This document shows positions 36,498 through 54,089 of a stretch of 64,000 nt of DNA, in pieces. The stretch is from NCBI GenBank assembly GCA_963663225.1, contig OY760142.1, forward strand, positions 1,216,001 through 1,280,000. Direction: 5' to 3'. Origin of the DNA: Nitrospirota bacterium (GTDB lineage Bacteria > Nitrospirota > UBA9217). Position 1 is the first letter of the stretch, and every line of letters begins with the position of its first letter. Under the pieces are notes generated by a model. It ran no database searches, was not told where the DNA came from, and was given only the letters and a program-made list of their open reading frames with translations. Position numbers and translations under genes: made by a program.

Positions 36498-36572
36498 GGG
36501 CGCTTAGCTCAGCGGGAGAGCACTGCCTTCACACGGCAGGGGCCACTGGTTCAATCCCAGTAGCGCCCACCA
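36498..36572 (+). tRNA. tRNA-Val (anticodon CAC)
   Basis: GGGCGCT/AGCGCCC acceptor stem, CTGCC-TTCACAC-GGCAG anticodon arm, GGTTCAATCC T-loop and encoded CCA. Confidence 0.95.
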
Positions 36573-36738: not shown

Positions 36739-38052
36739 CTATTTCGACCGCATCAACTGCGGCGTCTGTTCACTATTATACTGCTTTCGTGCGATCCGCT
36801 CTACCTGAGGCTTGAGATAGCTGTAAAGATCATCTATTTTCAGCGAACCATCCTGGGTCGTTACGCCCTCATTCTTGATGCCTTTGAGCAAAAAATATGT
36901 GAAGAGCCCATGGCCTTTTTCCTCATAGGTAGAGCTTATCTGATCACCCTGAGAAGCCGAGATAACCGTCATGTTCCTAGATGGCACTGAATTGTTTTGA
37001 AGGTTCATAACAAGCGGACGCGCGCCCTTGGCCAGCACCGAGCGCCCTCCCGCACCGGAGAAGCAAGAATCAAGAGCGACAATGATTTCCTTCGCGGGCA
37101 ACTTCCCAAGCGCATCATACATTCTTTTCAGCGAGTAGCCGGTTTCTGCAATAAACGTTGGATCTCCGTCATAGGGCACCAGATAAGCCCCTCCTGTCTT
37201 GGGTTCCGGTGCACCATGGCCCGAGTAGTACACAAATACGGTGCTCTCTTTCTCGACATTATTTGGGAGCCATTTTTCGAAGTATTTTACAAAGTCGACA
37301 TTGGTGGCATTTTCGTTCAGCAAGGTGACAACGTTTTCTTCAGGATACCCAAGGGCTTTGGTGAGGTAATCAACAACTAACCTCGCATCCTGGGTTGCGT
37401 AATCCGCCCTCGGCAACTTCTGGCGGTAGTTTTGAATGCCGATCACAACAGCGTAGGCTTTACTGTTCTGCTTGGTTTTTACTACCGGCACGACATCAAT
37501 ATCCGACCGCTGCATAGAAGAATCTTCACTGGATAATGAAGAAGCATCGTCATCCGCAAACTGTTCCTGCTGTTGTTTCTGCAACGTTTTTTTTCGAGAG
37601 GGAACGGCTGCGGTCTGTTCTCGTTTTTGAGCTGCTACTACTGTTTCTCCTCCGCGATTAGCGCCGTAGTCAAACAAAAGCCTTACCATCTTGGTGTTTT
37701 TCTTGCACTCCGCGATAAACAGAGGCGTCCCGCAATTACAACTTGCCGCCCATCCGTCCCCACAGCTTATTTTATTTACGTCCGCTCCTCTCTCGAGCAT
37801 AAGACGGACGATATCCAGCCGGGCATTATTGAACACCGCCTCATGCAAAGGTGACAAACCGGGCATTACACGCGCGTTAACGTCAGCGCCATTATTTAAT
37901 AAATCTTCCACTTCCTTAATATCTCCCCGTTTTGCAGCTCTGCCCAAGGAGGAAACAGTTGCACATCCTGTCGTCAACAGAAACAAAAAAACGACAAACG
38001 CCACGCCGATACAAGAAAATATTGATTTTGAAGGATTCTCTCTTTTCACCAT
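36739..38052 (-). CDS. Lipoprotein with ankyrin repeats and a caspase-like (peptidase C14) domain
   Basis: Lipobox TTGC; ankyrin repeats (LLNNGADVN, SPLHEAV, TPLFIA); YSGHG and LDSCFSG His-Cys dyad. Confidence 0.9.
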   Translation of the reverse strand: MVKRENPSKSIFSCIGVAFVVFLFLLTTGCATVSSLGRAAKRGDIKEVEDLLNNGADVNARVMPGLSPLHEAVFNNARLDIVRLMLERGADVNKISCGDGWAASCNCGTPLFIAECKKNTKMVRLLFDYGANRGGETVVAAQKREQTAAVPSRKKTLQKQQQEQFADDDASSLSSEDSSMQRSDIDVVPVVKTKQNSKAYAVVIGIQNYRQKLPRADYATQDARLVVDYLTKALGYPEENVVTLLNENATNVDFVKYFEKWLPNNVEKESTVFVYYSGHGAPEPKTGGAYLVPYDGDPTFIAETGYSLKRMYDALGKLPAKEIIVALDSCFSGAGGRSVLAKGARPLVMNLQNNSVPSRNMTVISASQGDQISSTYEEKGHGLFTYFLLKGIKNEGVTTQDGSLKIDDLYSYLKPQVERIARKQYNSEQTPQLMRSK

Positions 38053-38438
38053 GGCCTCCAGCAAATTCAGGAAAAGCGACATACAGTATTTTTTGGTTAT
38101 TACAGAGAAAATTCAACTTGTTAAATGTATAACAGGGCCAGGGGATAAATGCAAGAAAAAAGGGTTATGATATTTTTCAGGTTCAGGCTTAATATCTGCA
38201 AGAGATTGCTGGAAGTAGCTTGTTGTACGGGGTATTTGGAGCTGAGGAATAATATTTGAACTGACAAACCAAAATAAAACTCTAGATGCTAATTCTGCAA
38301 ATGGTCTTGTTATAGTAACCTTTTTGAAACTGTCTAACTATTTTGTAACTACTTGACAAAATATATTATTAGATGATACGGTCACTTAACAGCAAAGAAA
38401 AATATCAGTCCAAACCGCAGGAACGGAAGGAGGCCGAT

Positions 38439-42287: not shown

Positions 42288-42542
42288 GGAGTGTGAAGGA
42301 GTATACGATTGAAGAGAGGAAAAAGTCAATCCCTGCGACACGGAGTTTTTGAAAAGAGAGAGGTACACAGTAAGCAGCAATGCAGGATGCATATAACGCC
42401 GGCGTAAAATAACTTTACAGGGCCGGGAAAGGAAATTATAATATTTCTTAAAAAGTGCGGGCTGCTATTGCGTGCTTGGTTTTTAGAGAGACAATGCATG
42501 CTGGTTGTCCGTCAAACGCAACGATCCGCCAGGGGGCAGGTT

Positions 42543-43910
42543 ATGAACAGAACGCGTAAGATATCCTCAATCAGTGTGATCCTGATGGTGCTAGCGGCCG
42601 TTGTGCTCAGCGGGTGCGCCACGTCCCGCACGGTCATGATCGCGCCCATCGATTCTGCGTCAAAGAGCCTGGTTCCCGTGCCGTTTTCGGTGCACGTGGA
42701 AATTCGGGGGGTCAAGGAGGAAAATCCAAATCCAGTGACCCCGATCGCTGTAGACAAGGAATCGTTGAAGAGGATGATCGTACGGTATCTCGCGGCCCGC
42801 TCGACGTTCGACCGTGTTTTGGACGGTCTTGCGGACAGCGTGCTGAACATTGACGTCACCTACCACGTGCGGCAAGGCAATTTTTTTGACTACGTCGCGA
42901 ATTTGAAGGCGGCGTTGATTTCGAAGGACGGGCGCGATCTCGGTTCGTTTACAGGACAAAGCACTGTACGAGGCGGCATGACGAGGTTTTCCGCGAGCGC
43001 CGACGTCGAGCCGATGAACAGCGCTATGGCGCAGGCAATTGAAAATCTCTGCCTGAGGATCGAAGAGAACCGTCCGCTGATCCTGGCAAAGCTTGGTCGG
43101 CAGGATGCTCTTCCTCTGGCAGCAAAACCCCTCATCAGATCCGATGTCGATGACATCCAGATCACAAAATCGAAACCGAACCCCAGCGCGTACGCCGTTG
43201 TCATCGGCATCGAGCAGTACCGACAGAAATTACCCGCGGCGGATTTTGCCGTGAGCGACGCGCAGACCGTGACCGACTACCTGACGAAAGCCATGGGGTA
43301 TCCGGCGGAAAACATCATTACCCTCACAAATGACCGGGCGGCGTTGGGGGATTTTGTAAAATACATCGAGCGATGGCTCCCGAACAATGTAGAACATGGG
43401 AGTACCGTTTTCATCTACTATTCGGGACACGGGGCTCCCAACACCAAGACGGGGGATGCTTATCTTGTTCCCTATGACGGCGACCCGACGTTTATCGCGG
43501 AGACGGGTTATTCGCTGAAGAGAATGTACGACGCCCTGGGAAAGCTACCGGCCAAGGAAATCATTGTTGCGCTCGATTCATGCTTCTCGGGCGCGGGCGG
43601 CAGATCGGTCCTTGCGAAAGGCGCCCGGCCTCTTGTCATGAATCTCAAGCATGACGCAGTAATGGCAAAAAACATAACCATTCTTGCTGCTTCCTCGGGC
43701 GAACAGATCAGCTCGACCTATGACGAGAAGGGCCACGGTCTCTTTACCTACTTTTTGCTCAAGGGAATCAAGAATGAGAATGTCGTAAACCAGGACGGCT
43801 CGCTCGCTGTACAGGATCTGTTCAGCTACATGAGGCCTCAAGTGGAGCGGATAGCCAGAAAACAGTATAACAATGAACAGATACCGCAAATGATCGGGCC
43901 GAATAGATGA
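42543..43910 (+). CDS. Lipoprotein with an unknown N-terminal domain and a caspase-like (C14) domain
   Basis: Lipobox LSGC; YSGHG and LDSCFSG dyad; C-terminal half is paralogous to 36739-38052. Confidence 0.9.
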   Translation: MNRTRKISSISVILMVLAAVVLSGCATSRTVMIAPIDSASKSLVPVPFSVHVEIRGVKEENPNPVTPIAVDKESLKRMIVRYLAARSTFDRVLDGLADSVLNIDVTYHVRQGNFFDYVANLKAALISKDGRDLGSFTGQSTVRGGMTRFSASADVEPMNSAMAQAIENLCLRIEENRPLILAKLGRQDALPLAAKPLIRSDVDDIQITKSKPNPSAYAVVIGIEQYRQKLPAADFAVSDAQTVTDYLTKAMGYPAENIITLTNDRAALGDFVKYIERWLPNNVEHGSTVFIYYSGHGAPNTKTGDAYLVPYDGDPTFIAETGYSLKRMYDALGKLPAKEIIVALDSCFSGAGGRSVLAKGARPLVMNLKHDAVMAKNITILAASSGEQISSTYDEKGHGLFTYFLLKGIKNENVVNQDGSLAVQDLFSYMRPQVERIARKQYNNEQIPQMIGPNR

Positions 43911-44041: not shown

Positions 44042-44446
44042 ATGAACGAAAGACCCTTTCTGACAGTTGACTGCGTTATGTTTCATAACAGCACAGTCGT
44101 CCTTATTCGGCGGGCATACGAACCGTTCAAGGGATGGTACGCGCTGCCCGGCGGTTTTGTGGAAGCCGGGGAGACCGTCGAGGAGGCGTGCCGCCGCGAG
44201 ACGCGCGAGGAAACCGGCCTCATCGTCAAAGACCTGCGGTTGATCGGTGTTTATTCCGACCCCGCGAGAGACCCCCGCAGGCACACCGTCTCCGTGGCTT
44301 TTCTCGGCGAGGCTGACATCTCTTCCCTCAAGGCGGGTGACGACGCGAGCGCAGCGGAGCTGGTTGTTGACTGGCAGCATGCCGAGATAGCGTTCGATCA
44401 CAAGAAAATACTGCACGATGCATGGCGGTTGCATAATCGACGGTAA
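44042..44446 (+). CDS. Nudix hydrolase (ADP-ribose pyrophosphatase-like)
   Basis: Nudix box GGFVEAGETVEEACRRETREETGL, RDPR, AGDDA and IAFDH motifs. Confidence 0.92.
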   Translation: MNERPFLTVDCVMFHNSTVVLIRRAYEPFKGWYALPGGFVEAGETVEEACRRETREETGLIVKDLRLIGVYSDPARDPRRHTVSVAFLGEADISSLKAGDDASAAELVVDWQHAEIAFDHKKILHDAWRLHNRR

Positions 44447-44456
44447 TAACTATTAA

Positions 44457-44730
44457 TTTTTTTTGTTACCTTTCTTGCTTGCTCCAAGAAAGGTAACCCA
44501 ATCCCCTGCGACATATGATTCCGGCTTTGGCCGGAGTCGGGTTAGTCGCGGGGAGGTCGCATTATCAAGAGCCTTCGGCTCATAAGGTTCTCCTCAGAAG
44601 GGCACCCGGCGAACATTCTGGTCCGTCATCCTCAATCGCCCTCAGTACATTTCGGAAATAGTCTGTATTCGCGCTACGCACTCATAACCACTGGCCACGA
44701 GCTCAATCGTCTGGCGGGAATGTTCGTATG
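44457..44730. repeat. Structured repeat element, copy A (carries a 94-nt internal insert)
   Basis: GTTACCTTTCTTG..CAAGAAAGGTAAC hairpin; homologous to 46191-46420. Confidence 0.75.
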
Positions 44731-44798: not shown

Positions 44799-44918
44799 GC
44801 ATAGCAGCAAGAGCAAAACACGGGATTCGTGTGCTTTTTTTTAATTAGTTACGCGAAAGTTCGCAACGATATTAGAAATCGGGCGTGATTGTTCTGCCAA
44901 GAGGTCGAGGCCAGGGAA

Positions 44919-46103
44919 ATGGGCATCAATGACATATCGCTGACAACGGGAATGAGGTCGAATCTCATCAGCCTGCAGAAGACGTCAAGTCTCCTGAACA
45001 GGACACAGGAGCGTCTTGCCACCGGCAAGAAAGTGAACACCGCCCTTGATAATCCCACCAGCTTTTTCGCGGCCCAGACGCTCAATATGCGTGCCTCCAA
45101 TCTGACGGGCCTGAAAGACTCTATGTCGAACGCGGTCAGCACCATTCAGGCCGCGAACGACGGCATAACAGGCATTACCAGGCTGATCGATGCTGCAAAA
45201 GGCCTGGCCCAGTCTGCGCTTGCCACGTCCGACACGACCGCGATCAACTCATACGCTGCGCAGTTCGATACAATTTTGGGCCAGATCACGCAGATGGGCG
45301 GCGATTCGGGCTATTCCGGCACCAACTTCCTCGCTTCCCAGAACCTGACCGTCATCTTCGACAGCACGAGCGGGAATTCACTCCAGATCAACGGGTTCAA
45401 CGGCTCGAGCACCGGGCTCGGCCTGCACGCGGCGAATACGGCAAGCAGCACACAAACCGTCACGAGCACGGTCACAACTCTCCAGACGGCAACAGTGTCA
45501 AGTTATGACTCCATCTATCACATTGTCAAGCTCGGCTCCGGCACAGTATCGGCCGCGCTGGGAAATCTTATGAACGCAAATCCGTTCAACTACCGGATAG
45601 TCGATTCCGTGACAGGAGCAATCGCAACCGGCGATTCCGTGGATGCTATGGGCTATCAGCCGCCTTCCATTGGTGGAGACTATTGGGCCCTGGTGGTGTC
45701 CGGCACGTTTCACATCGGCGACGCGGTCACGATTCAGTACGACGCGAGCGGTTTCAACCACACGACCGGCGCGCCGAACTCCCTAACCGTAACCACGCCC
45801 GGCAGCAACTCCTGGCTCGCTTCCGGCGGCATACAGGCTTCGATAAACGAGTTGAATTCCGCCGTGACCACCCTCCAGAACTATTCAGCCGGCCTTTCAT
45901 CCAACCTGAGCATTGTTACGACGCGCGAGGATTTCACGACCAGCATGGTCAATGACCTGCAGGTCGGAGTCGACGAGCTTACCCTTGCCGACATGAACCA
46001 GGAAGGGGCCAGCATGCTGATGCTCCAGACCAGGGAATCGCTCGGCACCACCTCGCTCAGCCTCTCGTCACAGGCGGCCCAGACAGTCCTCGATCTCTTC
46101 TGA
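44919..46103 (+). CDS. Flagellin
   Basis: N-terminal MRSNLISLQ...QERLATGKKVNTALDNP and C-terminal LTLADMNQEGA..LQTR..VLDLF; Thr/Ser-rich variable middle; sigma28 promoter. Confidence 0.88.
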   Translation: MGINDISLTTGMRSNLISLQKTSSLLNRTQERLATGKKVNTALDNPTSFFAAQTLNMRASNLTGLKDSMSNAVSTIQAANDGITGITRLIDAAKGLAQSALATSDTTAINSYAAQFDTILGQITQMGGDSGYSGTNFLASQNLTVIFDSTSGNSLQINGFNGSSTGLGLHAANTASSTQTVTSTVTTLQTATVSSYDSIYHIVKLGSGTVSAALGNLMNANPFNYRIVDSVTGAIATGDSVDAMGYQPPSIGGDYWALVVSGTFHIGDAVTIQYDASGFNHTTGAPNSLTVTTPGSNSWLASGGIQASINELNSAVTTLQNYSAGLSSNLSIVTTREDFTTSMVNDLQVGVDELTLADMNQEGASMLMLQTRESLGTTSLSLSSQAAQTVLDLF

Positions 46104-46117
46104 ACAAATCGCTTTCT

Positions 46118-46180
46118 CAGATAGCGTTTAATCACGAACAAATTTTGAATAACGCGTGGCGGTTGCCTAAACAACGGTAA
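46118..46180 (+). pseudogene. Displaced Nudix 3' tail, copy 1
   Basis: QIAFNHEQILNNAWRLPKQR* aligns ungapped with 44384-44446 (47/63 nt by hand count). Confidence 0.85.
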
Positions 46181-46190
46181 CAAGATATTG

Positions 46191-46420
46191 ATTTCTTTTT
46201 GTCACCTTTCTTGCTCGCTCCAAGAAAGGTAACCCAAAGAAGGGCGCCCGGCGAAAATCCTTTACGGCTGACTCGGTCGTCCTCGGTACATTTCGGAAAT
46301 AGCCTGCATTCGCGCAGTGCACTCATAAACGCTGGCTACAGGCTCGCCAACCTTTGGGCTCAAACAGTCCGAAATGTTTAACCCTCGTCCTCGGTCGTCC
46401 GCCTATATTTTCGCATGGGT
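46191..46420. repeat. Structured repeat element, copy B
   Basis: Same leading hairpin as copy A; long fold-back CATTTCGGA/TCCGAAATG and GCGAAAAT/ATTTTCGC. Confidence 0.75.
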
Positions 46421-47591: not shown

Positions 47592-47685
47592 ACAAATCCT
47601 TTCCTGATGCTGATTGTTCCTGTAAAGGGGTCATGGTATGGAAATCAGATTGGCTCAGATAATAAAAACATGTAATAGATTCCTC

Positions 47686-48120
47686 ATGCGAGGCATTCCC
47701 ACGGCAGTTCTTATTCTGCTTTTTGCAATGCTCACCTCCTGCGGCTCGACGTATCGGATATATCAGGGCGATCCCCTGCCCCCGGATAAAATCGGCATTC
47801 TGAAAATTCCCGGTGGCATTGATACCACGGAAACAGTCCGCATCAAAGTGGTCGACGGCGTGAGGCGGGGAAATTTCTACGGCAGCCTTTGGGATGGCAG
47901 CGGGCAGATAGAATTTATGCCGGGAAAACATTCGATTACTGTCTATGTCTGGCTTCGGGGATATCAGAGTTTTGAGCGGCGGCTGGATTTCATTGTTGAG
48001 GCCGGGAAAACGTATGTTGTCAGGCATGAACGCGTCAGTGGTATTGCAGGAACTTATTACGAACTCAAGGTTGAGGATGAGACGGTGAAAAAGGAGAAGT
48101 ATAAAATCGAGCCTTATTAG
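47686..48120 (+). CDS. Hypothetical beta-rich lipoprotein
   Basis: Lipobox LTSC; YQGDPLP; IEFMPGKHSI; VEAGKTY. Confidence 0.78.
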   Translation: MRGIPTAVLILLFAMLTSCGSTYRIYQGDPLPPDKIGILKIPGGIDTTETVRIKVVDGVRRGNFYGSLWDGSGQIEFMPGKHSITVYVWLRGYQSFERRLDFIVEAGKTYVVRHERVSGIAGTYYELKVEDETVKKEKYKIEPY

Positions 48121-48167
48121 CAGGTGATGACGTGAGCGCATTGATGATGATTGTAGATTGGCAGCAT
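48120..48167 (+). pseudogene. Displaced Nudix 3' tail, copy 2
   Basis: AGDDVSALMMIVDWQH versus AGDDASAAELVVDWQH at 44333-44380 (37/48 nt by hand count). Confidence 0.78.
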
Positions 48168-48378
48168 ACGGTAAACCGCTCGGACGAGGCGCGCAGCACG
48201 CAATGAAGTTTCACAGAACCACTGCATATCAGCAATAAGAAACTTAGTTGATGTGCTTTTGCTCGGAAGGCATGTTGCTGAAAAATCAAGAGGACACGTG
48301 GGACACAGCATAGGTTGCTTCAGGATTGTCAATAACTACAGATTCAAGTCTGACTCTATACACCCCCAAGGGCGATGA

Positions 48379-48855
48379 ATGAAAAGCTACGCATCAATAA
48401 GGAAAGCAATTAGTGCCGATCTGCCAGCTATCGGGGAGCTCTGGAAAGAGTTCATTGATTTCCATAAAAAACGCGATCCACATTTTACCCGCGCAGCCGA
48501 CGGCCATGAGGTGTTCAAGGAGTTCATATCCGGTCACATGACGGCAGAGACATCGTGTGTTCTGGTCGCCGAGCAGGACGGTGAAGCAGTAGGTTACTGT
48601 CTTGCAACATTGGCCAAGCATCCGCCGGTGTTCGAGAATCAGGATTATGGAATGGTGTGCGATCTTGCCGTGACCGAACGGTGCCGGAGAAACGGCATCG
48701 GCGAGAGACTGTTCCGCGCGGTACAGACATGGTTTGTGGACTGCGGTATTCACCGGATCGAACTTCGGGTCGTCGTGGCCAATGAGACTTCCACGGCATT
48801 CTGGCGGAAGATGGGGCTTAATCCCTACATTACAACTGTTTTCAAAAGTATCTGA
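48379..48855 (+). CDS. GNAT family N-acetyltransferase
   Basis: LVAEQDGEAVGY, DLAV...RRNGIG and N..STAFWRKMG motifs. Confidence 0.9.
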   Translation: MKSYASIRKAISADLPAIGELWKEFIDFHKKRDPHFTRAADGHEVFKEFISGHMTAETSCVLVAEQDGEAVGYCLATLAKHPPVFENQDYGMVCDLAVTERCRRNGIGERLFRAVQTWFVDCGIHRIELRVVVANETSTAFWRKMGLNPYITTVFKSI

Positions 48856-48933
48856 CAGCGGAGTAATGAAGGTCAACGCTTTACTGATGGCACTGATGTC
48901 GACAATAAAGATTTGACCCCAAAGATGATAAGT

Positions 48934-49236
48934 ATTGATACCACGGAAACAGTTCGCATCAAAGTGGTCGACGGCGTGAGACGGGGGAATTTTTACGGCA
49001 GCCTCTGGGACGGCAGCGGGCAAATAGAATTTATGCCGGGAAAACATTCGATCATTGTCTATGTCTGGCTTCAGGGGTATCAGAGTTTTGAGCGGAGGCT
49101 GGATTTTACAGTTGAGGCAGGAAAAACCTATGTTGTCAGGCATGAACGCGTCAGCGGTATTGCAGGAACTTTTTACGAACTCAAGGTTGAGGATGAGACG
49201 GTGAAAAAGGAGAAGTATAATATAGAGGCTTACTAG
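48934..49236 (+). pseudogene. 5'-truncated second allele of the 47686-48120 lipoprotein
   Basis: 303 nt colinear with 47818-48120, about 24 differences; lacks signal peptide and lipobox. Confidence 0.88.
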
Positions 49237-49254
49237 CAGGAGCGGTTGAGGATA

Positions 49255-49352
49255 GCGGAGTTAATTGTAGATTAGCAACATGCTGAGATAGCTTCGGATC
49301 ATAAAAAAAATTTTAACGACACGACGCGTGGCGAATGCAAAATCAATGGTAA
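49255..49352 (+). pseudogene. Displaced Nudix 3' tail, copy 3
   Basis: AELIVD*QHAEIASDHKK / HDAWRMQNQW* versus AELVVDWQHAEIAFDHKK..HDAWRLHNRR*; contains a nonsense codon and a frameshift. Confidence 0.85.
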
Positions 49353-49507
49353 GGGAATTAACAGGAACATTTAACTCAATAACTAAAGTGATTTGCTTTT
49401 TGGTCGAAAAGCAAGTTGCTATAAAATTAAGAGAACAAGTGGGACTGAACGTCCCGCTAGGTTGCGTGAGAATACTAAAATAAAGATTTGACACTATTTG
49501 GACTGAT

Positions 49508-49918
49508 TCATGTCTGATCCTGTAAGGTTCTATCTATTCGTTTGATACAGGCCTCGAAATTATTTTTGAGTTCATGCTGCCATAGACGGATAACTTTCCA
49601 GCCCTGTGCACGAAGTCTTCGGTGGTTCCTGGTGTCCCGTTTCCGATTTTGCGATATTTTCTTTTTCCAAAAGTCCGACAGCTTGTGTTCCCATAATGGG
49701 AATCGGTATCCATGCCAGAAATCACCATCCACAAATACTATCACACGGTTCTTTTTGAATACGATATCTGGTTTGCCTGGTAAGCGCTTGTCATGCTTCC
49801 TAAACCGTAATCCTTTTTTATGAAGAGCCGTTCTCACGCGTAATTCCAAGCTGGTGTCCTTCCCCTTAATACGGGACATACAGTAGCTGCGCTGTTTTTT
49901 GGTCAGATTATCCGGCAT
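49508..49918 (-). CDS. vsr: Very short patch repair endonuclease
   Basis: RSYCMSRIKGKDT, LPGKPDIVF, FVDGDFWHG and LWQHE motifs. Confidence 0.93.
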   Translation of the reverse strand: MPDNLTKKQRSYCMSRIKGKDTSLELRVRTALHKKGLRFRKHDKRLPGKPDIVFKKNRVIVFVDGDFWHGYRFPLWEHKLSDFWKKKISQNRKRDTRNHRRLRAQGWKVIRLWQHELKNNFEACIKRIDRTLQDQT

Positions 49919-52853
49919 TATCCTGTCTTTGGAACTGGCTGAATATTCGAACCATCGCCCGCTGGTTGGGTAAGTACAGGGCAGGCGGTAATGTTTTCAG
50001 AAGTTCGAAGTTCTGTGGTTCTCGCGAGCACAGCTGTTTGAAGTCGCAGTTCGCACATTTATCGGGATGCGGCCGCATCGGAAAATCAGCGTTGAGAATA
50101 CCCTGTACTGCCCATTCTATGTTCGCGAGGGCGGCATCGACGGCCTCGGACGTTATCGGTATCTCGATTCGCTTGTTGTCTTTCAAGAGATGTACACTGC
50201 CCGTCTTGGCATTCTGACCGATGACTTGATCCGCTGCGCTCGCATACAATTGAACTTGCAAGGAGAGCTCGGTCCAGTCGAGTTTGGCGTTTGTTTCGGG
50301 TGTCTCGCCGCCTTCCATCGCCTTGAAGTCGATGATCTCGGCGTCGAGGATGTTCCCGCTCTGATCTTCACGGAGCAACAAATCAATCGCGCCAGAGATC
50401 ACGCAATTTGATGCTGGTATCTCGAAAGCTACCTCAACTTGCCTTTCCCGCTCGAAGTCGGCACCGTACGAGCCCACGTAGTCCTGAGTAATTTCGACAG
50501 CCCGGTTCTTTGCTTTCTCGTACGCGCCTGGATTATTAACTGGATCGCGGCTCTCAGGAACATGCTTCAAGTGAAAAGTATTTTGTATGACCTGTTCAAT
50601 TTCGTCCGCACGAGGCGGTGCTTGGGGAAACAGTTCATGTAACTTTTGGATGGATGTATGAACCGTCTGTCCAAAACCGAACATTTCCGGAATGGCAGGA
50701 TTAAGACCATACCGTTTCCGAAATTGATAGCCCTTTGGGCACTGCAGGTAGTATTTGATTTCAGTGAAACTTGTTGGATAGTCGGCATCCTCGACTCTGC
50801 GACGAGGTGTAGTCGGAACGAGCCCTAGAGGAAGTCCTGCGGGGTCTTTAACAATCGCAGGGTGCAATGCGAACCGAAGCGCAAAGATCGATTGTGGTCT
50901 GGGTTTCTTTCCTTGCGGCAATTGTGCAGCGCCGGTTATGTAAAGATACCGTTCAGCGCGCGTGGCAGCCGTGTAGAAAAGTCTTATTTGCTCATTCTCA
51001 GTACTCTGATAAGCCCCACGGTTGACTGCCGGAGCCATGACGCCAGCTGGCAGCCATCCGGAATAGCTACTACGTTTTTTCGGGAACCGCTGAGCTTCCA
51101 CGTCCACGACGAATACACATGGAAACTCGAGTCCCTTCATTTTATGAACAGTCGATACTGTTACTGTATCCGGCCGTTGTAACAGATCATCAGTAGATAC
51201 ATCGTATCCTATTTCGGCGGCATTTTGCAAAAAATTGAGGACTTCCGAGAAGCGAAACGTAGAATCGACACTCATGTACACAGTTTCGACGTCCAAAATC
51301 ATGCGGCTGAATAGCCCTATATCCCGCATCACATCGTCGCCGAAGTTCGTCCTGGCAATATTAAACGCCTCTAACAAATCGTAAACGAGCTGTTGCGGAT
51401 AGAGCCGAATCCTCGTTGATCCTTGGGGTCGATGAATCTTACGATGCCAATCGGTAAGAATACGGATTACTGCATTAATGTCCGAGTCGGGAAACGCGGG
51501 ACGTACTTGGGCGTTGAAATGCTGCTGCACGGTGTTCCGGTCGAGAAACGTTTGCCGGAGTAGCTCAAAAGTGCCACGAAGTACTGCTATCTGCGGACGG
51601 TCAAATGGGCCGCCTCCTGATTCCAAACTATAGGGAAGTCCTAAATCACCTAAAGCTCCGGTGAACGCACTGTGCCTTGGAAAACCATTTTGTTCTGGCT
51701 CTCGTGTGGACTGCATTAATACAGCAAAATCAGCCGGGGTTAAGCCCCTGCTCTGTCCATTGTCGTTGTAGGCAGTGCCAAGTAGATCATTGATCTTTCT
51801 TGCTACCCAGTCAGCCTCGGTTGGACGGTCTGGAAACCACAGCACCCGAGTATCCTGAGGTGCGATATTAGCAACCGCGGATGGGTTCTTTGGAAACCGG
51901 CTCGGCCCCAGCATTGCCACTGCAAATGCATCCGATGCCTGCACGATCGGCTCAGTACTTCGAAAATTTTCGGACAATGTATGTACACTACAGCTCGGAT
52001 ACCGTTGCTGAAATCCTAGTATGTTTGTAACATCCGCCCCACGCCAAGCATATATAGACTGATCGTCGTCCCCGACTACAAAGAGGGTCTGAGAGCGACT
52101 GTGCAGAAGTCGGATTAGCTCTTCTTGACAAGGATTGACATCTTGGTATTCGTCTACCATGAGATGCCGCAGCAGGCCGACCCCTTTTTCAACACCCCGT
52201 GAATTGCTACGGATCGCCTCAACCACGTTTCTGATCATGAGGGAAAAATCGATATATTGGTCCGCCCGGAGTCCATCCCGAATGGCTGTAAGTAACTCAC
52301 CTATCTCCGCGTCCTCTGCAGCGATTGCATTGAAGTCTAATAGCTCATCATTCGCGGTTTTCCATGCATCAGACGCCTGTTTGATCGTGTCGAAGTAGCT
52401 ACCCTCTTTATTTGGCCCTGCTCCTTTTGCTCGTCTGCGTAGCGGTTTAAGTTTTAATGCGCCGAATCGTGAGATCATGTACAGCTTCAGACGGTTCTCG
52501 TCCAAGACATCGAACTGACGATACGTTGCATCCATGTCGCCTAAGACTCTTTGGCAGTAAGCATGAATTGTCCCGATGAACATCGCACCCATGACCGTTG
52601 GGTCGATCCCTGCCTTAGTTAGGGCTTGAGAAACGCGCCGCTTGATTGTTTCTGCCGCCTTTTCAGTAAATGTGAAGGCTACGATGCTATCAGGAGACTG
52701 TCCCTCGGCTAAGAGCCTCGCTATCCTATATGCCAGCGTTCTTGACTTCCCTGATCCTGCGCAAGCCAGACACAATACTTCTCTCACAGGATCAACTGCT
52801 GCGTCATATTGCTCTGGTGTAAGTTCCGCTCTCAATACCTGATCGATGTCCAT
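49908..52853 (-). CDS. UvrD/Rep (SF1A) helicase fused to a C-terminal PD-(D/E)XK RecB-like nuclease with Fe-S cysteines
   Basis: Helicase motifs AGSGKS, FTFTEKAA, VDEYQD, GDDDQSIYAWRGA, NFRS, TVHKMKGLEF, YTAATRA. Nuclease motifs GAIDLL, IIDFK, QVQLY. Cysteines QCP and CANC..C. Confidence 0.9.
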   Translation of the reverse strand: MDIDQVLRAELTPEQYDAAVDPVREVLCLACAGSGKSRTLAYRIARLLAEGQSPDSIVAFTFTEKAAETIKRRVSQALTKAGIDPTVMGAMFIGTIHAYCQRVLGDMDATYRQFDVLDENRLKLYMISRFGALKLKPLRRRAKGAGPNKEGSYFDTIKQASDAWKTANDELLDFNAIAAEDAEIGELLTAIRDGLRADQYIDFSLMIRNVVEAIRSNSRGVEKGVGLLRHLMVDEYQDVNPCQEELIRLLHSRSQTLFVVGDDDQSIYAWRGADVTNILGFQQRYPSCSVHTLSENFRSTEPIVQASDAFAVAMLGPSRFPKNPSAVANIAPQDTRVLWFPDRPTEADWVARKINDLLGTAYNDNGQSRGLTPADFAVLMQSTREPEQNGFPRHSAFTGALGDLGLPYSLESGGGPFDRPQIAVLRGTFELLRQTFLDRNTVQQHFNAQVRPAFPDSDINAVIRILTDWHRKIHRPQGSTRIRLYPQQLVYDLLEAFNIARTNFGDDVMRDIGLFSRMILDVETVYMSVDSTFRFSEVLNFLQNAAEIGYDVSTDDLLQRPDTVTVSTVHKMKGLEFPCVFVVDVEAQRFPKKRSSYSGWLPAGVMAPAVNRGAYQSTENEQIRLFYTAATRAERYLYITGAAQLPQGKKPRPQSIFALRFALHPAIVKDPAGLPLGLVPTTPRRRVEDADYPTSFTEIKYYLQCPKGYQFRKRYGLNPAIPEMFGFGQTVHTSIQKLHELFPQAPPRADEIEQVIQNTFHLKHVPESRDPVNNPGAYEKAKNRAVEITQDYVGSYGADFERERQVEVAFEIPASNCVISGAIDLLLREDQSGNILDAEIIDFKAMEGGETPETNAKLDWTELSLQVQLYASAADQVIGQNAKTGSVHLLKDNKRIEIPITSEAVDAALANIEWAVQGILNADFPMRPHPDKCANCDFKQLCSREPQNFELLKTLPPALYLPNQRAMVRIFSQFQRQDNAG

Positions 52854-52877
52854 TGCGTTCTGACCTCATGCTGTTAC

Positions 52878-53930
52878 TTATACTCTGTTAACATTCAGCA
52901 AGCCGCGTCTAATACATCTTCCATGAGCAGCAATCATCGGAGGTGGCAAGGCATTCCCTATCATCAATGCCACCGCTGATTTGCTCTCTGCTATTGGGAA
53001 TTTGTATCGGGATGGGAATCCCTGTAGAAGTGCAGCTTCGCGCATTGTGATCGCTCTATTCTCTTTTGGGTGAATGAAGCGACCCTTTGATGGATTGAAG
53101 CATCCGCTGGTGATCGTGGGGGCGACATCGTCCCAGGCCATGCGCCCGTAGACGTCCTTGAACCCAGAACATCGCTTATGACATTTTAGTTGAAATCTCT
53201 TCGGTAAATCCGTGCGGCTTCCGCCGTTTCTCGGTACTCGCCGTATAATATCCATAACCCTAGGCGTACGATGCTCCGGCATATCGTGCAGGCGGTCTCC
53301 ACTTTTACCCGCAGCCGGTAGCTTCCCGATAGCATCCCTGACTGTCCGCAGTCTGTTAGTTTTCGCTGCGAAGGGTATCTCAACGCCCATACCGGCAAGA
53401 TAAATCAACCTGCGTCTTCGCTGCGGGACACGGTAATCCTTGGCATTCAGGACACGGTGGCCCCCGAAATATCCGAGTTTCTTCATTGCTCTACTAAATG
53501 TAGCAAACCGTTTATCATCACCAAGGCCAGGTACATTTTCCAGCATTATAGCTCGTGGACGGAGGATCTCTACGAACCGTTGAAATTCAAGTAATAGGTC
53601 ATTCCGCGAATCAATGATCTTGAGCGCTCCATTGAGTGTCCTCAATGTAGAGAAACCTTGACAAGGCGGGCATCCAGCCAGGAGGTCCAGCTCTCCCTTT
53701 TTCAGTCCGAGATCAGCGAGTAAGCGTCTCGGGCTAAGTCGCCTGATGTCCTTTTCCCACACCATGACATTGCGATGATTTGCCTTATAGGTCATCATGG
53801 CAAGAGGATCGATATCAACAGCACCCAACACGCGAAAGCCAGCATTTTTGAGTCCGACCGTAGTTCCACCGCACCCGCAGAAAAGGTCAATAGCCGACAG
53901 TTTTTTCTTATTTGCTTTCTTGCTCTTCAT
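52878..53930 (-). CDS. DNA (cytosine-5)-methyltransferase
   Basis: DLFCGCGG, GCPPCQGFS, ENVPG, PQRRRR, REAALLQGFP and IGNALPP motifs. Confidence 0.95.
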   Translation of the reverse strand: MKSKKANKKKLSAIDLFCGCGGTTVGLKNAGFRVLGAVDIDPLAMMTYKANHRNVMVWEKDIRRLSPRRLLADLGLKKGELDLLAGCPPCQGFSTLRTLNGALKIIDSRNDLLLEFQRFVEILRPRAIMLENVPGLGDDKRFATFSRAMKKLGYFGGHRVLNAKDYRVPQRRRRLIYLAGMGVEIPFAAKTNRLRTVRDAIGKLPAAGKSGDRLHDMPEHRTPRVMDIIRRVPRNGGSRTDLPKRFQLKCHKRCSGFKDVYGRMAWDDVAPTITSGCFNPSKGRFIHPKENRAITMREAALLQGFPSRYKFPIAESKSAVALMIGNALPPPMIAAHGRCIRRGLLNVNRV

Positions 53931-54007
53931 CTTTTTGCAATAATGGGTAGGATATGTACGATGTGATGGGAAAATCTTCAAAGGTGAAGTTCCTCCCAGA
54001 TGTGATG

Positions 54008-54036
54008 AGAATACTATGCTTTTGCGAAAGAAGCAA
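54008..54036 (-). promoter_or_regulatory. Putative sigma70 promoter of the MTase-helicase-vsr operon
   Basis: Minus strand TTGCTT-N17-TATTCT. Confidence 0.45.
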
Positions 54037-54073: not shown

Positions 54074-54089
54074 TAAGCACTAGTGCTTA
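54074..54089. promoter_or_regulatory. 16-bp perfect palindrome, possible operator
   Basis: TAAGCACTAGTGCTTA in a divergent intergenic region. Confidence 0.45.

Follow-up and report, generated by a model that had tools for sequence, protein, structure and literature searches.

A mobile trio of C5 methyltransferase, UvrD-Cas4 helicase-nuclease and Vsr genes: a candidate restriction-like module in a Nitrospirota genome

The DNA considered here is a window of 64,000 nucleotides from a Nitrospirota bacterium (assembly GCA_963663225.1, contig OY760142.1, positions 1,216,001 to 1,280,000), on the minus strand of which three co-oriented genes lie head to tail and encode, in this order, a C5 cytosine DNA methyltransferase, a helicase-nuclease of the UvrD-Cas4 family and the T:G mismatch endonuclease Vsr. 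The most economical reading of the trio is a mobile defence module resembling a restriction-modification (R-M) system, a reading which agrees with a published prediction and is held here tentatively, at a little under an even chance. It is favoured because the trio recurs in other taxa, spreads between phyla without mobility genes, includes a member of a family linked to R-M systems and has no other nuclease gene beside it.

The three genes and their products

The ORF (open reading frame) list and the translations confirm the tight packing of three co-oriented genes that had been claimed in an earlier note on this DNA (Table 1). Between the methyltransferase stop and the helicase ATG there are 24 nt, with a GAGG Shine-Dalgarno sequence 10 nt before that ATG, and the vsr ATG falls within the last helicase codons, giving an overlap of 11 nt (ATGCCGGATAA). 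The database's own Vsr for the window is shorter, at 123 amino acids (P0394); the overlapping start of the long form is taken to be real because its N-terminus, MPDNLT..QRSYCMSRIKGKDT, is kept in 27 of 27 aligned homologues. The methyltransferase ORF (52878-53981) opens at TTG, and the ATG at 53930 is its likely start because the database protein for the window (P0274) has 350 amino acids. The span first given for the unit, 49508 to 54036, is therefore right at its left end and takes in about 100 nt of upstream DNA at its right end. The unit is about 4.4 kb long, without mobility genes and with no regulator gene, and between the two copies of an 11-bp repeat that bracket it the ORF list gives no nuclease gene besides the trio.

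The methyltransferase matches Pfam PF00145 (DNA_methylase, E-value 3.2e-57) over profile positions 2-320 of 324 and scores 160.6 against NCBIfam TIGR00675, for which the cut-off is 100.65. The motifs are FCGCGG at residue 17, PPCQGFS at 88 (with the catalytic Cys90), ENV at 131, QRRRR at 170 and GNALPP at 325, and with all catalytic motifs intact and the profile covered almost in full the enzyme is complete, as had been proposed. By sequence its nearest matches among solved structures are the catalytic domains of eukaryotic DNMT1 (E-value 7e-32), with bacterial M.HaeIII (6e-20) and M.HhaI (3e-13) ranking behind them. One methylase homologue (P0318) bears an HTH_17 domain. Palindrome under-representation in the window, considered as a guide to the methylated site, was uninformative, with only CTAG standing out.

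The helicase-nuclease of 981 amino acids was identified in the same note as a superfamily 1A (SF1A) helicase fused to a RecB-type nuclease with a 1+3 cysteine motif, and Pfam, motifs, the structural model and the structural matches agree on this. Pfam finds UvrD-helicase (3.3e-55, residues 11-286), UvrD_C, PDDEXK_1 (6.2e-23, 694-942) and Cas4 (6.2e-07, 862-942). The helicase motifs are AGSGKS (Walker A), DEYQD and VGDDDQ, the nuclease motifs are GAID824, D842-F-K844 and QVQLY, and the iron-sulphur (Fe-S) cysteines follow the 1+3 pattern, with C705 followed by C933-x2-C936-x5-C942, a four-cysteine pattern which that note likened to AddB. Across 54 family members these helicase, nuclease and cysteine motifs show little or no variation. 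The AlphaFold2 model of the whole chain has a mean predicted local distance difference test score (pLDDT) of 89.1 and a predicted template modelling score (pTM) of 0.90, and its fold is like those of AddA, RecB and AdnB; in a Foldseek search of the PDB the best match is AddA (4cej_A, E-value 2e-34), followed by UvrD, PcrA, RecB and AdnA/B, with a probability of 1.00 for AddA, RecB and AdnA/B. By NCBIfam the protein falls far under the equivalog cut-offs for pcrA, uvrD, rep, addA (132 against a cut-off of 708) and recB (104 against 696).

Vsr has a Pfam E-value of 1e-29 and a TIGR00632 score of 124.7 in NCBIfam, above the cut-off of 97.85. In its alignment to E. coli Vsr (1cw0, E-value 2.1e-21) PGKPD, the equivalent of PGxPD, and the equivalents of FWH and FW..KI are retained, so that the catalytic and wedge residues expected of a Dcm-Vsr very-short-patch repair pair are present. 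The zinc-cysteine positions of E. coli Vsr, whose residue numbers and roles are presumed here, are not retained in the alignment.

In the intergenic region between the methylase gene and its divergent neighbour, 144 nt before the methylase ATG, there is a perfect 16-bp palindrome (TAAGCACTAGTGCTTA, 54074-54089) which may be an operator. In a promoter and terminator scan the counts were not above those of shuffled sequence (terminator-like sites 7 against 5.0 +/- 2.1).

Table 1. Coordinates of the genes, repeat copies and candidate terminator of the unit within the 64-kb window
Feature	Position	Strand	Basis or remark
C5 cytosine DNA methyltransferase	52878..53930	-	350 amino acids; Pfam, NCBIfam, motifs
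UvrD-Cas4 helicase-nuclease, 981 amino acids	49908..52853	-	Pfam, motifs, AlphaFold2, Foldseek
Vsr T:G mismatch endonuclease	49508..49918	-	136 amino acids; Pfam, TIGR00632, alignment to 1cw0
Left 11-bp repeat copy, TGAGAATACTA	49467..49477	+	exact match; 31 nt beyond vsr stop
Right 11-bp repeat copy, TGAGAATACTA	54006..54016	+	exact match; 76 nt upstream of methylase ATG
Weak terminator-like hairpin downstream of vsr	49441..49455	-	consensus scan; candidate only

Family, spread and chromosomal setting

According to Hudaiberdiev et al. (2017, BMC Evol Biol 17:232, PMC5704561), UvrD-Cas4 forms the largest branch within pfam12705, with helicase domains that are monophyletic. Two conserved contexts were described, one with Type III Mod/Res and the other with Dcm, where several loci also have Vsr, and the members were predicted to belong to defence systems in an 'ancillary role', possibly in part redundant with RecB. 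The system had at first been taken as undescribed, a claim that is given up, UvrD-Cas4 with Dcm and Vsr being already in print with defence as the predicted role. The published context is what is found here, with the methylase just upstream and vsr overlapping the helicase stop, and the locus is a further member of that computationally described context with nothing essential different.

Membership of the family is plain from the UvrD-like SF1 helicase at the N-terminus and the Cas4-like PD-(D/E)XK nuclease at the C-terminus, and that the protein groups with other full-length fusions, rather than with plain UvrD/PcrA, is indicated both by the search of representatives and by the catalytic columns, which are invariant in the 54 sequences. 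Among representatives at 50% identity there are three full-length proteins at 56, 49 and 44%, then many full-length fusions at about 26-35%, which have about 880-1040 residues and match the query from residue ~10 to ~945. In an IQ-TREE phylogeny of 59 sequences, built without a plain UvrD outgroup, the 13 close rows form one branch with a stem of 1.17 and an SH-aLRT support of 100, and FastTree agrees; tips of the core clade measure only 0.05-0.22, where the median is 0.6. The Dcm/Vsr context, seen directly in the window, is backed by contig matches in only four other rows of this branch, P0017, P0036, P0080 and, with Vsr alone, P0042. Compared with distant members the close clade has additions at residues 2-8, 388-394, 765-772 and 851-856 and a C-terminal tail at 952-978. 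What is new here is that the Dcm-linked proteins, judged from their sequences, appear to be one long-stemmed clade with very short tips across phyla and a C-terminal tail of its own.

The wider family keeps other company. Among distant full-length UvrD-Cas4 loci four of five adjoin a DNA methyltransferase and a Res-type helicase; loci L001 and L002 have PF01555 and ResIII beside UvrD-Cas4, L003 has neither, and on the plasmids pATS1 and pBSY18_4 the annotated order is helicase, methyltransferase, DEAD/DEAH helicase. Of the 14 representatives scanned for fusions, nine of them longer than 1000 residues, one carries a fused N-terminal Pif1-like SF1B motor and another a helix-turn-helix domain, and there was no fusion to a methylase or Vsr. 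Three proteins of 1106-1319 residues (P0132, P0140 and P0145) match the query in three stretches, with ~130-170 extra residues before the stretch that matches it from ~223, perhaps an intein or inserted domain.

The spread of the trio is wide. As relatives of each protein the best 120 of thousands of matches were taken, so that all pair counts are lower bounds. The helicase-nuclease has at least 120 clusters of relatives at 69-85% identity and 965-995 residues, those with names coming from Chloroflexota, Nitrospinota, Desulfotomaculum, Deltaproteobacteria, Desulfobulbaceae and Competibacter. Among the matches listed, relatives of the methylase are 70-83% and those of Vsr 68-78% identical, and their names include Cloacimonetes, Lentisphaerae, Syntrophaceae, Dethiosulfovibrio, Dehalococcoides, Actinobacteria and Thermotogaceae. 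Co-occurrence was judged by pairing matches whose longest contigs have an identical size in bp, with the expectation taken from near-misses. Exact pairs number 13 for helicase and methylase, 13 for helicase and Vsr and 13 for methylase and Vsr, where 0.35, 0.29 and 1.1 would be expected by chance, and six contig sizes are common to all three lists, three of these triples also having the same organism name (Chloroflexota, 8972 bp; Desulfotomaculum, 12333 bp; Desulfobulbaceae, 10741 bp). As several of the common contigs are only 6-12 kb long, the genes must be close together, and the trio recurs on the contigs of other organisms.

These counts bear on the simplest alternative, that an ordinary repair helicase has come to lie by chance between dcm and vsr, which is scarcely credible. 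The only thing in its favour is the general abundance of UvrD paralogues, and it is contradicted by the recurrence of the trio on shared contigs far above chance and by the operon-type spacing of the genes. A set of 80 control loci was fetched by the generic UvrD motifs DEYQD[VI]NP and VGDDDQ[SA]I, three of them with full-length UvrD-Cas4 proteins and none of the close clade; a relative of this methylase or Vsr was found within 8 kb in none of the 80, nor therefore in any of the 77 generic UvrD loci among them, which again argues against chance neighbours.

Recurrence on shared contigs together with identities of 68-85% across phyla indicates that the trio travels together by horizontal transfer. 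Mobility between distant phyla is supported by these sequence comparisons, and, as R-M units usually do, the trio spreads without carrying mobility genes. A DNA search of E. coli genomes and plasmids gave no match, and a protein search of plasmids and phages gave only relatives of at most 32% identity, none of them full-length in phages.

At the ends of the unit the 11-bp direct repeat TGAGAATACTA is real, with exactly two copies in the 64 kb. An 11-mer in common is found in 28 of 5878 pairs of 100-nt windows at the same spacing and in 622 of 189827 random pairs, so the chance rate of such a bracket is about 0.3-0.5% for 100-nt flanks, which is unusual and is not proof of insertion. The left copy lies inside a segment (~48934-49500) that is a duplicate of 47818-48350, the latter being without the 11-mer, and the similarity of the two segments seems to run past the left copy. 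An exact 14-mer, AATAAAGATTTGAC, is also repeated, at 48904-48917 and 49479-49492, where it stands at the start and at the end of the second duplicate segment, its second copy beginning one base after the left 11-bp copy. The 11-bp repeat was for these reasons not taken to be an established target-site duplication, and the junctions are a patchwork of short-repeat events.

A gene-capture hotspot had been suggested at this place, which is borne out only in part, by two local duplications directly to the left of the unit. The first (47638-49500) includes a 160-amino-acid ORF (47638-48120) and a 107-amino-acid ORF (48913-49236) that are 94% identical over 100 residues, with 300 nt of their downstream DNA also duplicated at 92%; a GNAT acetyltransferase gene (48379-48855) lies between the two ORFs, neither of which has a Pfam or PADLOC match. 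The second (44385-44704 and 46119-46345) covers ~320 nt, is 75-93% identical in three blocks and includes the 3' end of a NUDIX gene; its two copies enclose a flagellin-N-domain gene (44889-46103), which might have been inserted with a long target duplication. Just after a tRNA-Val (36498-36572) are genes for two caspase-domain (Peptidase_C14) proteins (36739-38082 and 42468-43910), one with ankyrin repeats, both of which match the PADLOC 'caspase' profile. The window belongs to a contig of 3,255,001 bp and opens at the replication-origin region (1-20700, with dnaN, dnaA, rnpA, yidC, parB, parA, gidB, gidA (mnmG) and mnmE); the unit lies ~50 kb from dnaA among unrelated genes. The nine flanking ORFs include no PADLOC match of any family and no nuclease by Pfam.

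Restriction, repair or processing of ends

If the trio is a restriction-like defence module, the C5 methyltransferase would mark one fixed sequence in host DNA, and the ATP-driven effector would be the UvrD-type motor together with the Fe-S RecB/Cas4 nuclease that trails it. Where incoming unmarked DNA has an end or a nick the effector might load, and then unwind and degrade this DNA in the manner of AddA or RecB. Vsr would offset the cost of 5-methylcytosine by nicking the T:G mismatches that deamination leaves. That there is restriction at all, that methylation protects against it and that the methyltransferase lends the specificity, as Mod does to Res, is what we infer by analogy. Besides the evidence given at the outset, the reading draws on the relative fused to a Pif1-like motor, which suggests a RecBCD-like dual-motor design for degrading duplex DNA, on the independent prediction of a defence role by Hudaiberdiev et al. 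(2017, PMC5704561) and on the pairing of cytosine methylase and Vsr genes that Iyer et al. (2008, PMC2292703) noted in predicted R-M systems of the MORC type. Of the interpretation in the earlier note, the single mobile unit and a restriction-like role as the most economical one are kept, its novelty and its mechanism are not; that the helicase-nuclease takes the place of the restriction enzyme and degrades unmethylated DNA processively is pure inference.

Several points weigh against the restriction-like reading. UvrD-type motors load only at single-stranded DNA, a nick or an end, and the operon has no enzyme for the first cut in unmethylated DNA. Pfam, the model and the comparison of clades give no domain beyond motor and nuclease in the 981-residue chain, so that there is no obvious means by which it could read a site or a methyl group. 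Its distant relatives occur beside complete Type III systems that already possess a nuclease, which suggests an accessory rather than a primary role in restriction, and an accessory role is likewise what the 2017 authors hold (PMC5704561). PADLOC v2 gives matches for the trio at the level of domains only, and literature searches found no experimental study of a UvrD-Cas4/Dcm/Vsr module. A partner contig was found for only 20 of the 120 listed helicase clusters, and the closest relative (P0004, 85% identity, on a contig of 8645 bp) has no partner among the matches listed. Paired distances do not co-vary either, with a Mantel r of 0.21 for helicase and methylase (816 of 5000 permutations as high) and of 0.17 for helicase and Vsr (1141 of 5000), a comparison for which the star-like close helicase clade holds little signal.

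The main rival, in our view unlikely, is that nothing is restricted and that an orphan methylase is accompanied by a self-contained kit for very-short-patch repair. Vsr would nick 5' of the mismatched T, the UvrD-type motor would load at the nick and displace Vsr, and the nuclease would excise the T strand, all independently of the MutL, Pol I and exonucleases of the recipient. The overlap of vsr with the helicase gene suggests translational coupling, and the clade-specific additions fall mostly in the nuclease half and in the C-terminal tail, encoded right beside vsr. Vsr itself looks canonical, in its score above the TIGR00632 cut-off as in its retained PGxPD, FWH and FW..KI. A UvrD-type motor also naturally begins at a nick. 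Nicking enzymes are indeed connected to UvrD by MutL in E. coli, with UvrD unwinding from the nick (Iyer et al. 2008, PMC2292703). The difficulty lies in the distribution, as there is no obvious way for a module of repair and orphan methylation to spread at 68-85% identity over many phyla, and the Type III Mod/Res context of the wider family is left unexplained, Mod/Res making no T:G problem. Canonical very-short-patch repair in E. coli, moreover, depends on Pol I and ligase and not on UvrD. Were the trio a portable 5-methylcytosine repair kit it would also be new, and would explain how a methylase can invade hosts with differing repair equipment.

A further possibility, which is improbable, is that the helicase-nuclease is blind to methylation and acts as an accessory that destroys or resects DNA cut by another enzyme, or DNA at any break, with Dcm-Vsr as a marking module that travels along with it. 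This would suit the distant relatives that accompany complete Type III systems, the AddA/RecB/AdnB-like fold and the resemblance of the Pif1 fusion to RecBCD, and an ancillary role in part redundant with RecB is what the 2017 authors favour (PMC5704561). Yet neither the unit nor, by PADLOC and Pfam, the nine flanking ORFs contain a restriction enzyme that could supply the cut, the recurrence of so tight an operon of three genes on short contigs speaks for the trio being sufficient, and unregulated degradation of duplex DNA without a self-mark would cost the host.

Returning to the restriction-like reading, a more specific form of it can be proposed with greater doubt. In this the trio would be a new kind of R-M system, in which a single-chain AddA/RecB-like SF1 helicase with an Fe-S nuclease, guided or licensed by the C5 methyltransferase, translocates on unmethylated DNA and shreds it, and the 4.4-kb module would recently have swept through many phyla of anaerobes. 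If the trio does restrict, the design is a new one, as its cutter would be a motor-nuclease of the RecB/AddA type and in the known types the cutting is left to an SF2 protein, Res or HsdR, or to a simple endonuclease. There would then also be the puzzle of how an enzyme without a reading domain tells marked from unmarked DNA. Being small, nearly identical in many phyla and without mobility genes, the module offers a clean case of the spread of a defence or epigenetic module, and one that is easily tested.

Comparison with known systems

As had been stated in the earlier note, the unit fits neither Gabija nor DISARM, and no PADLOC v2 system matched it as a whole. GajB, the helicase of Gabija, is without a nuclease domain. 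The motor of the unit matches GajB profiles at 1e-47 and GajB structures at 3e-12, the profile matches staying inside the motor (residues 2-384), and no GajA partner was seen, nine flanking ORFs being without a PADLOC match. With DISARM class 2 the likeness is confined to the methylase, which matches DrmMII more weakly (1.7e-43) than MTase_II (1.6e-81), and PADLOC finds no Drm protein among the nine flanking ORFs. A classical Type II R-M system with Vsr would have a site-specific endonuclease gene, of which there is none between the repeats or, by PADLOC and Pfam, in the nine flanking ORFs.

The fold of the helicase-nuclease is shared with AddA, RecB and AdnB, in each of which an SF1A UvrD-like motor is followed by a RecB-family nuclease. 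The enzyme of the unit is, however, a single chain, with no gene for a second motor or nuclease subunit beside it as in AddAB, RecBCD and AdnAB, and its scores stay below the equivalog level. It is also about 200 amino acids shorter than AddA and RecB, and it is encoded with a methylase and Vsr rather than among recombination genes.

The likeness to Type III R-M lies in the proposed logic, in which a methyltransferase marks, and perhaps specifies, the site and a helicase-nuclease polypeptide carries out ATP-driven restriction; relatives of the unit's helicase-nuclease are moreover encoded next to Type III genes. The components differ, as the methylase of the unit is a C5 enzyme (PF00145) and not an N6/N4 Mod (PF01555), its motor is of the SF1 UvrD type (PF00580) and not SF2 ResIII, and Vsr is present.

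In logic the nearest characterised analogues appear to be CglI and NgoAVII, which likewise have three genes for a methyltransferase, an NTP-driven helicase-like motor and a nuclease, with no simple Type II endonuclease (Zaremba et al. 2014, PMC4267653; Toliusis et al. 2018, PMC5861437). As these systems are described, site recognition is built into a domain of the nuclease (R) and the motor (H/N) is a distinct chain, an SF2 DEAD-Z1 protein, whereas in the unit described here motor and nuclease are joined in one SF1 chain without a recognition domain.

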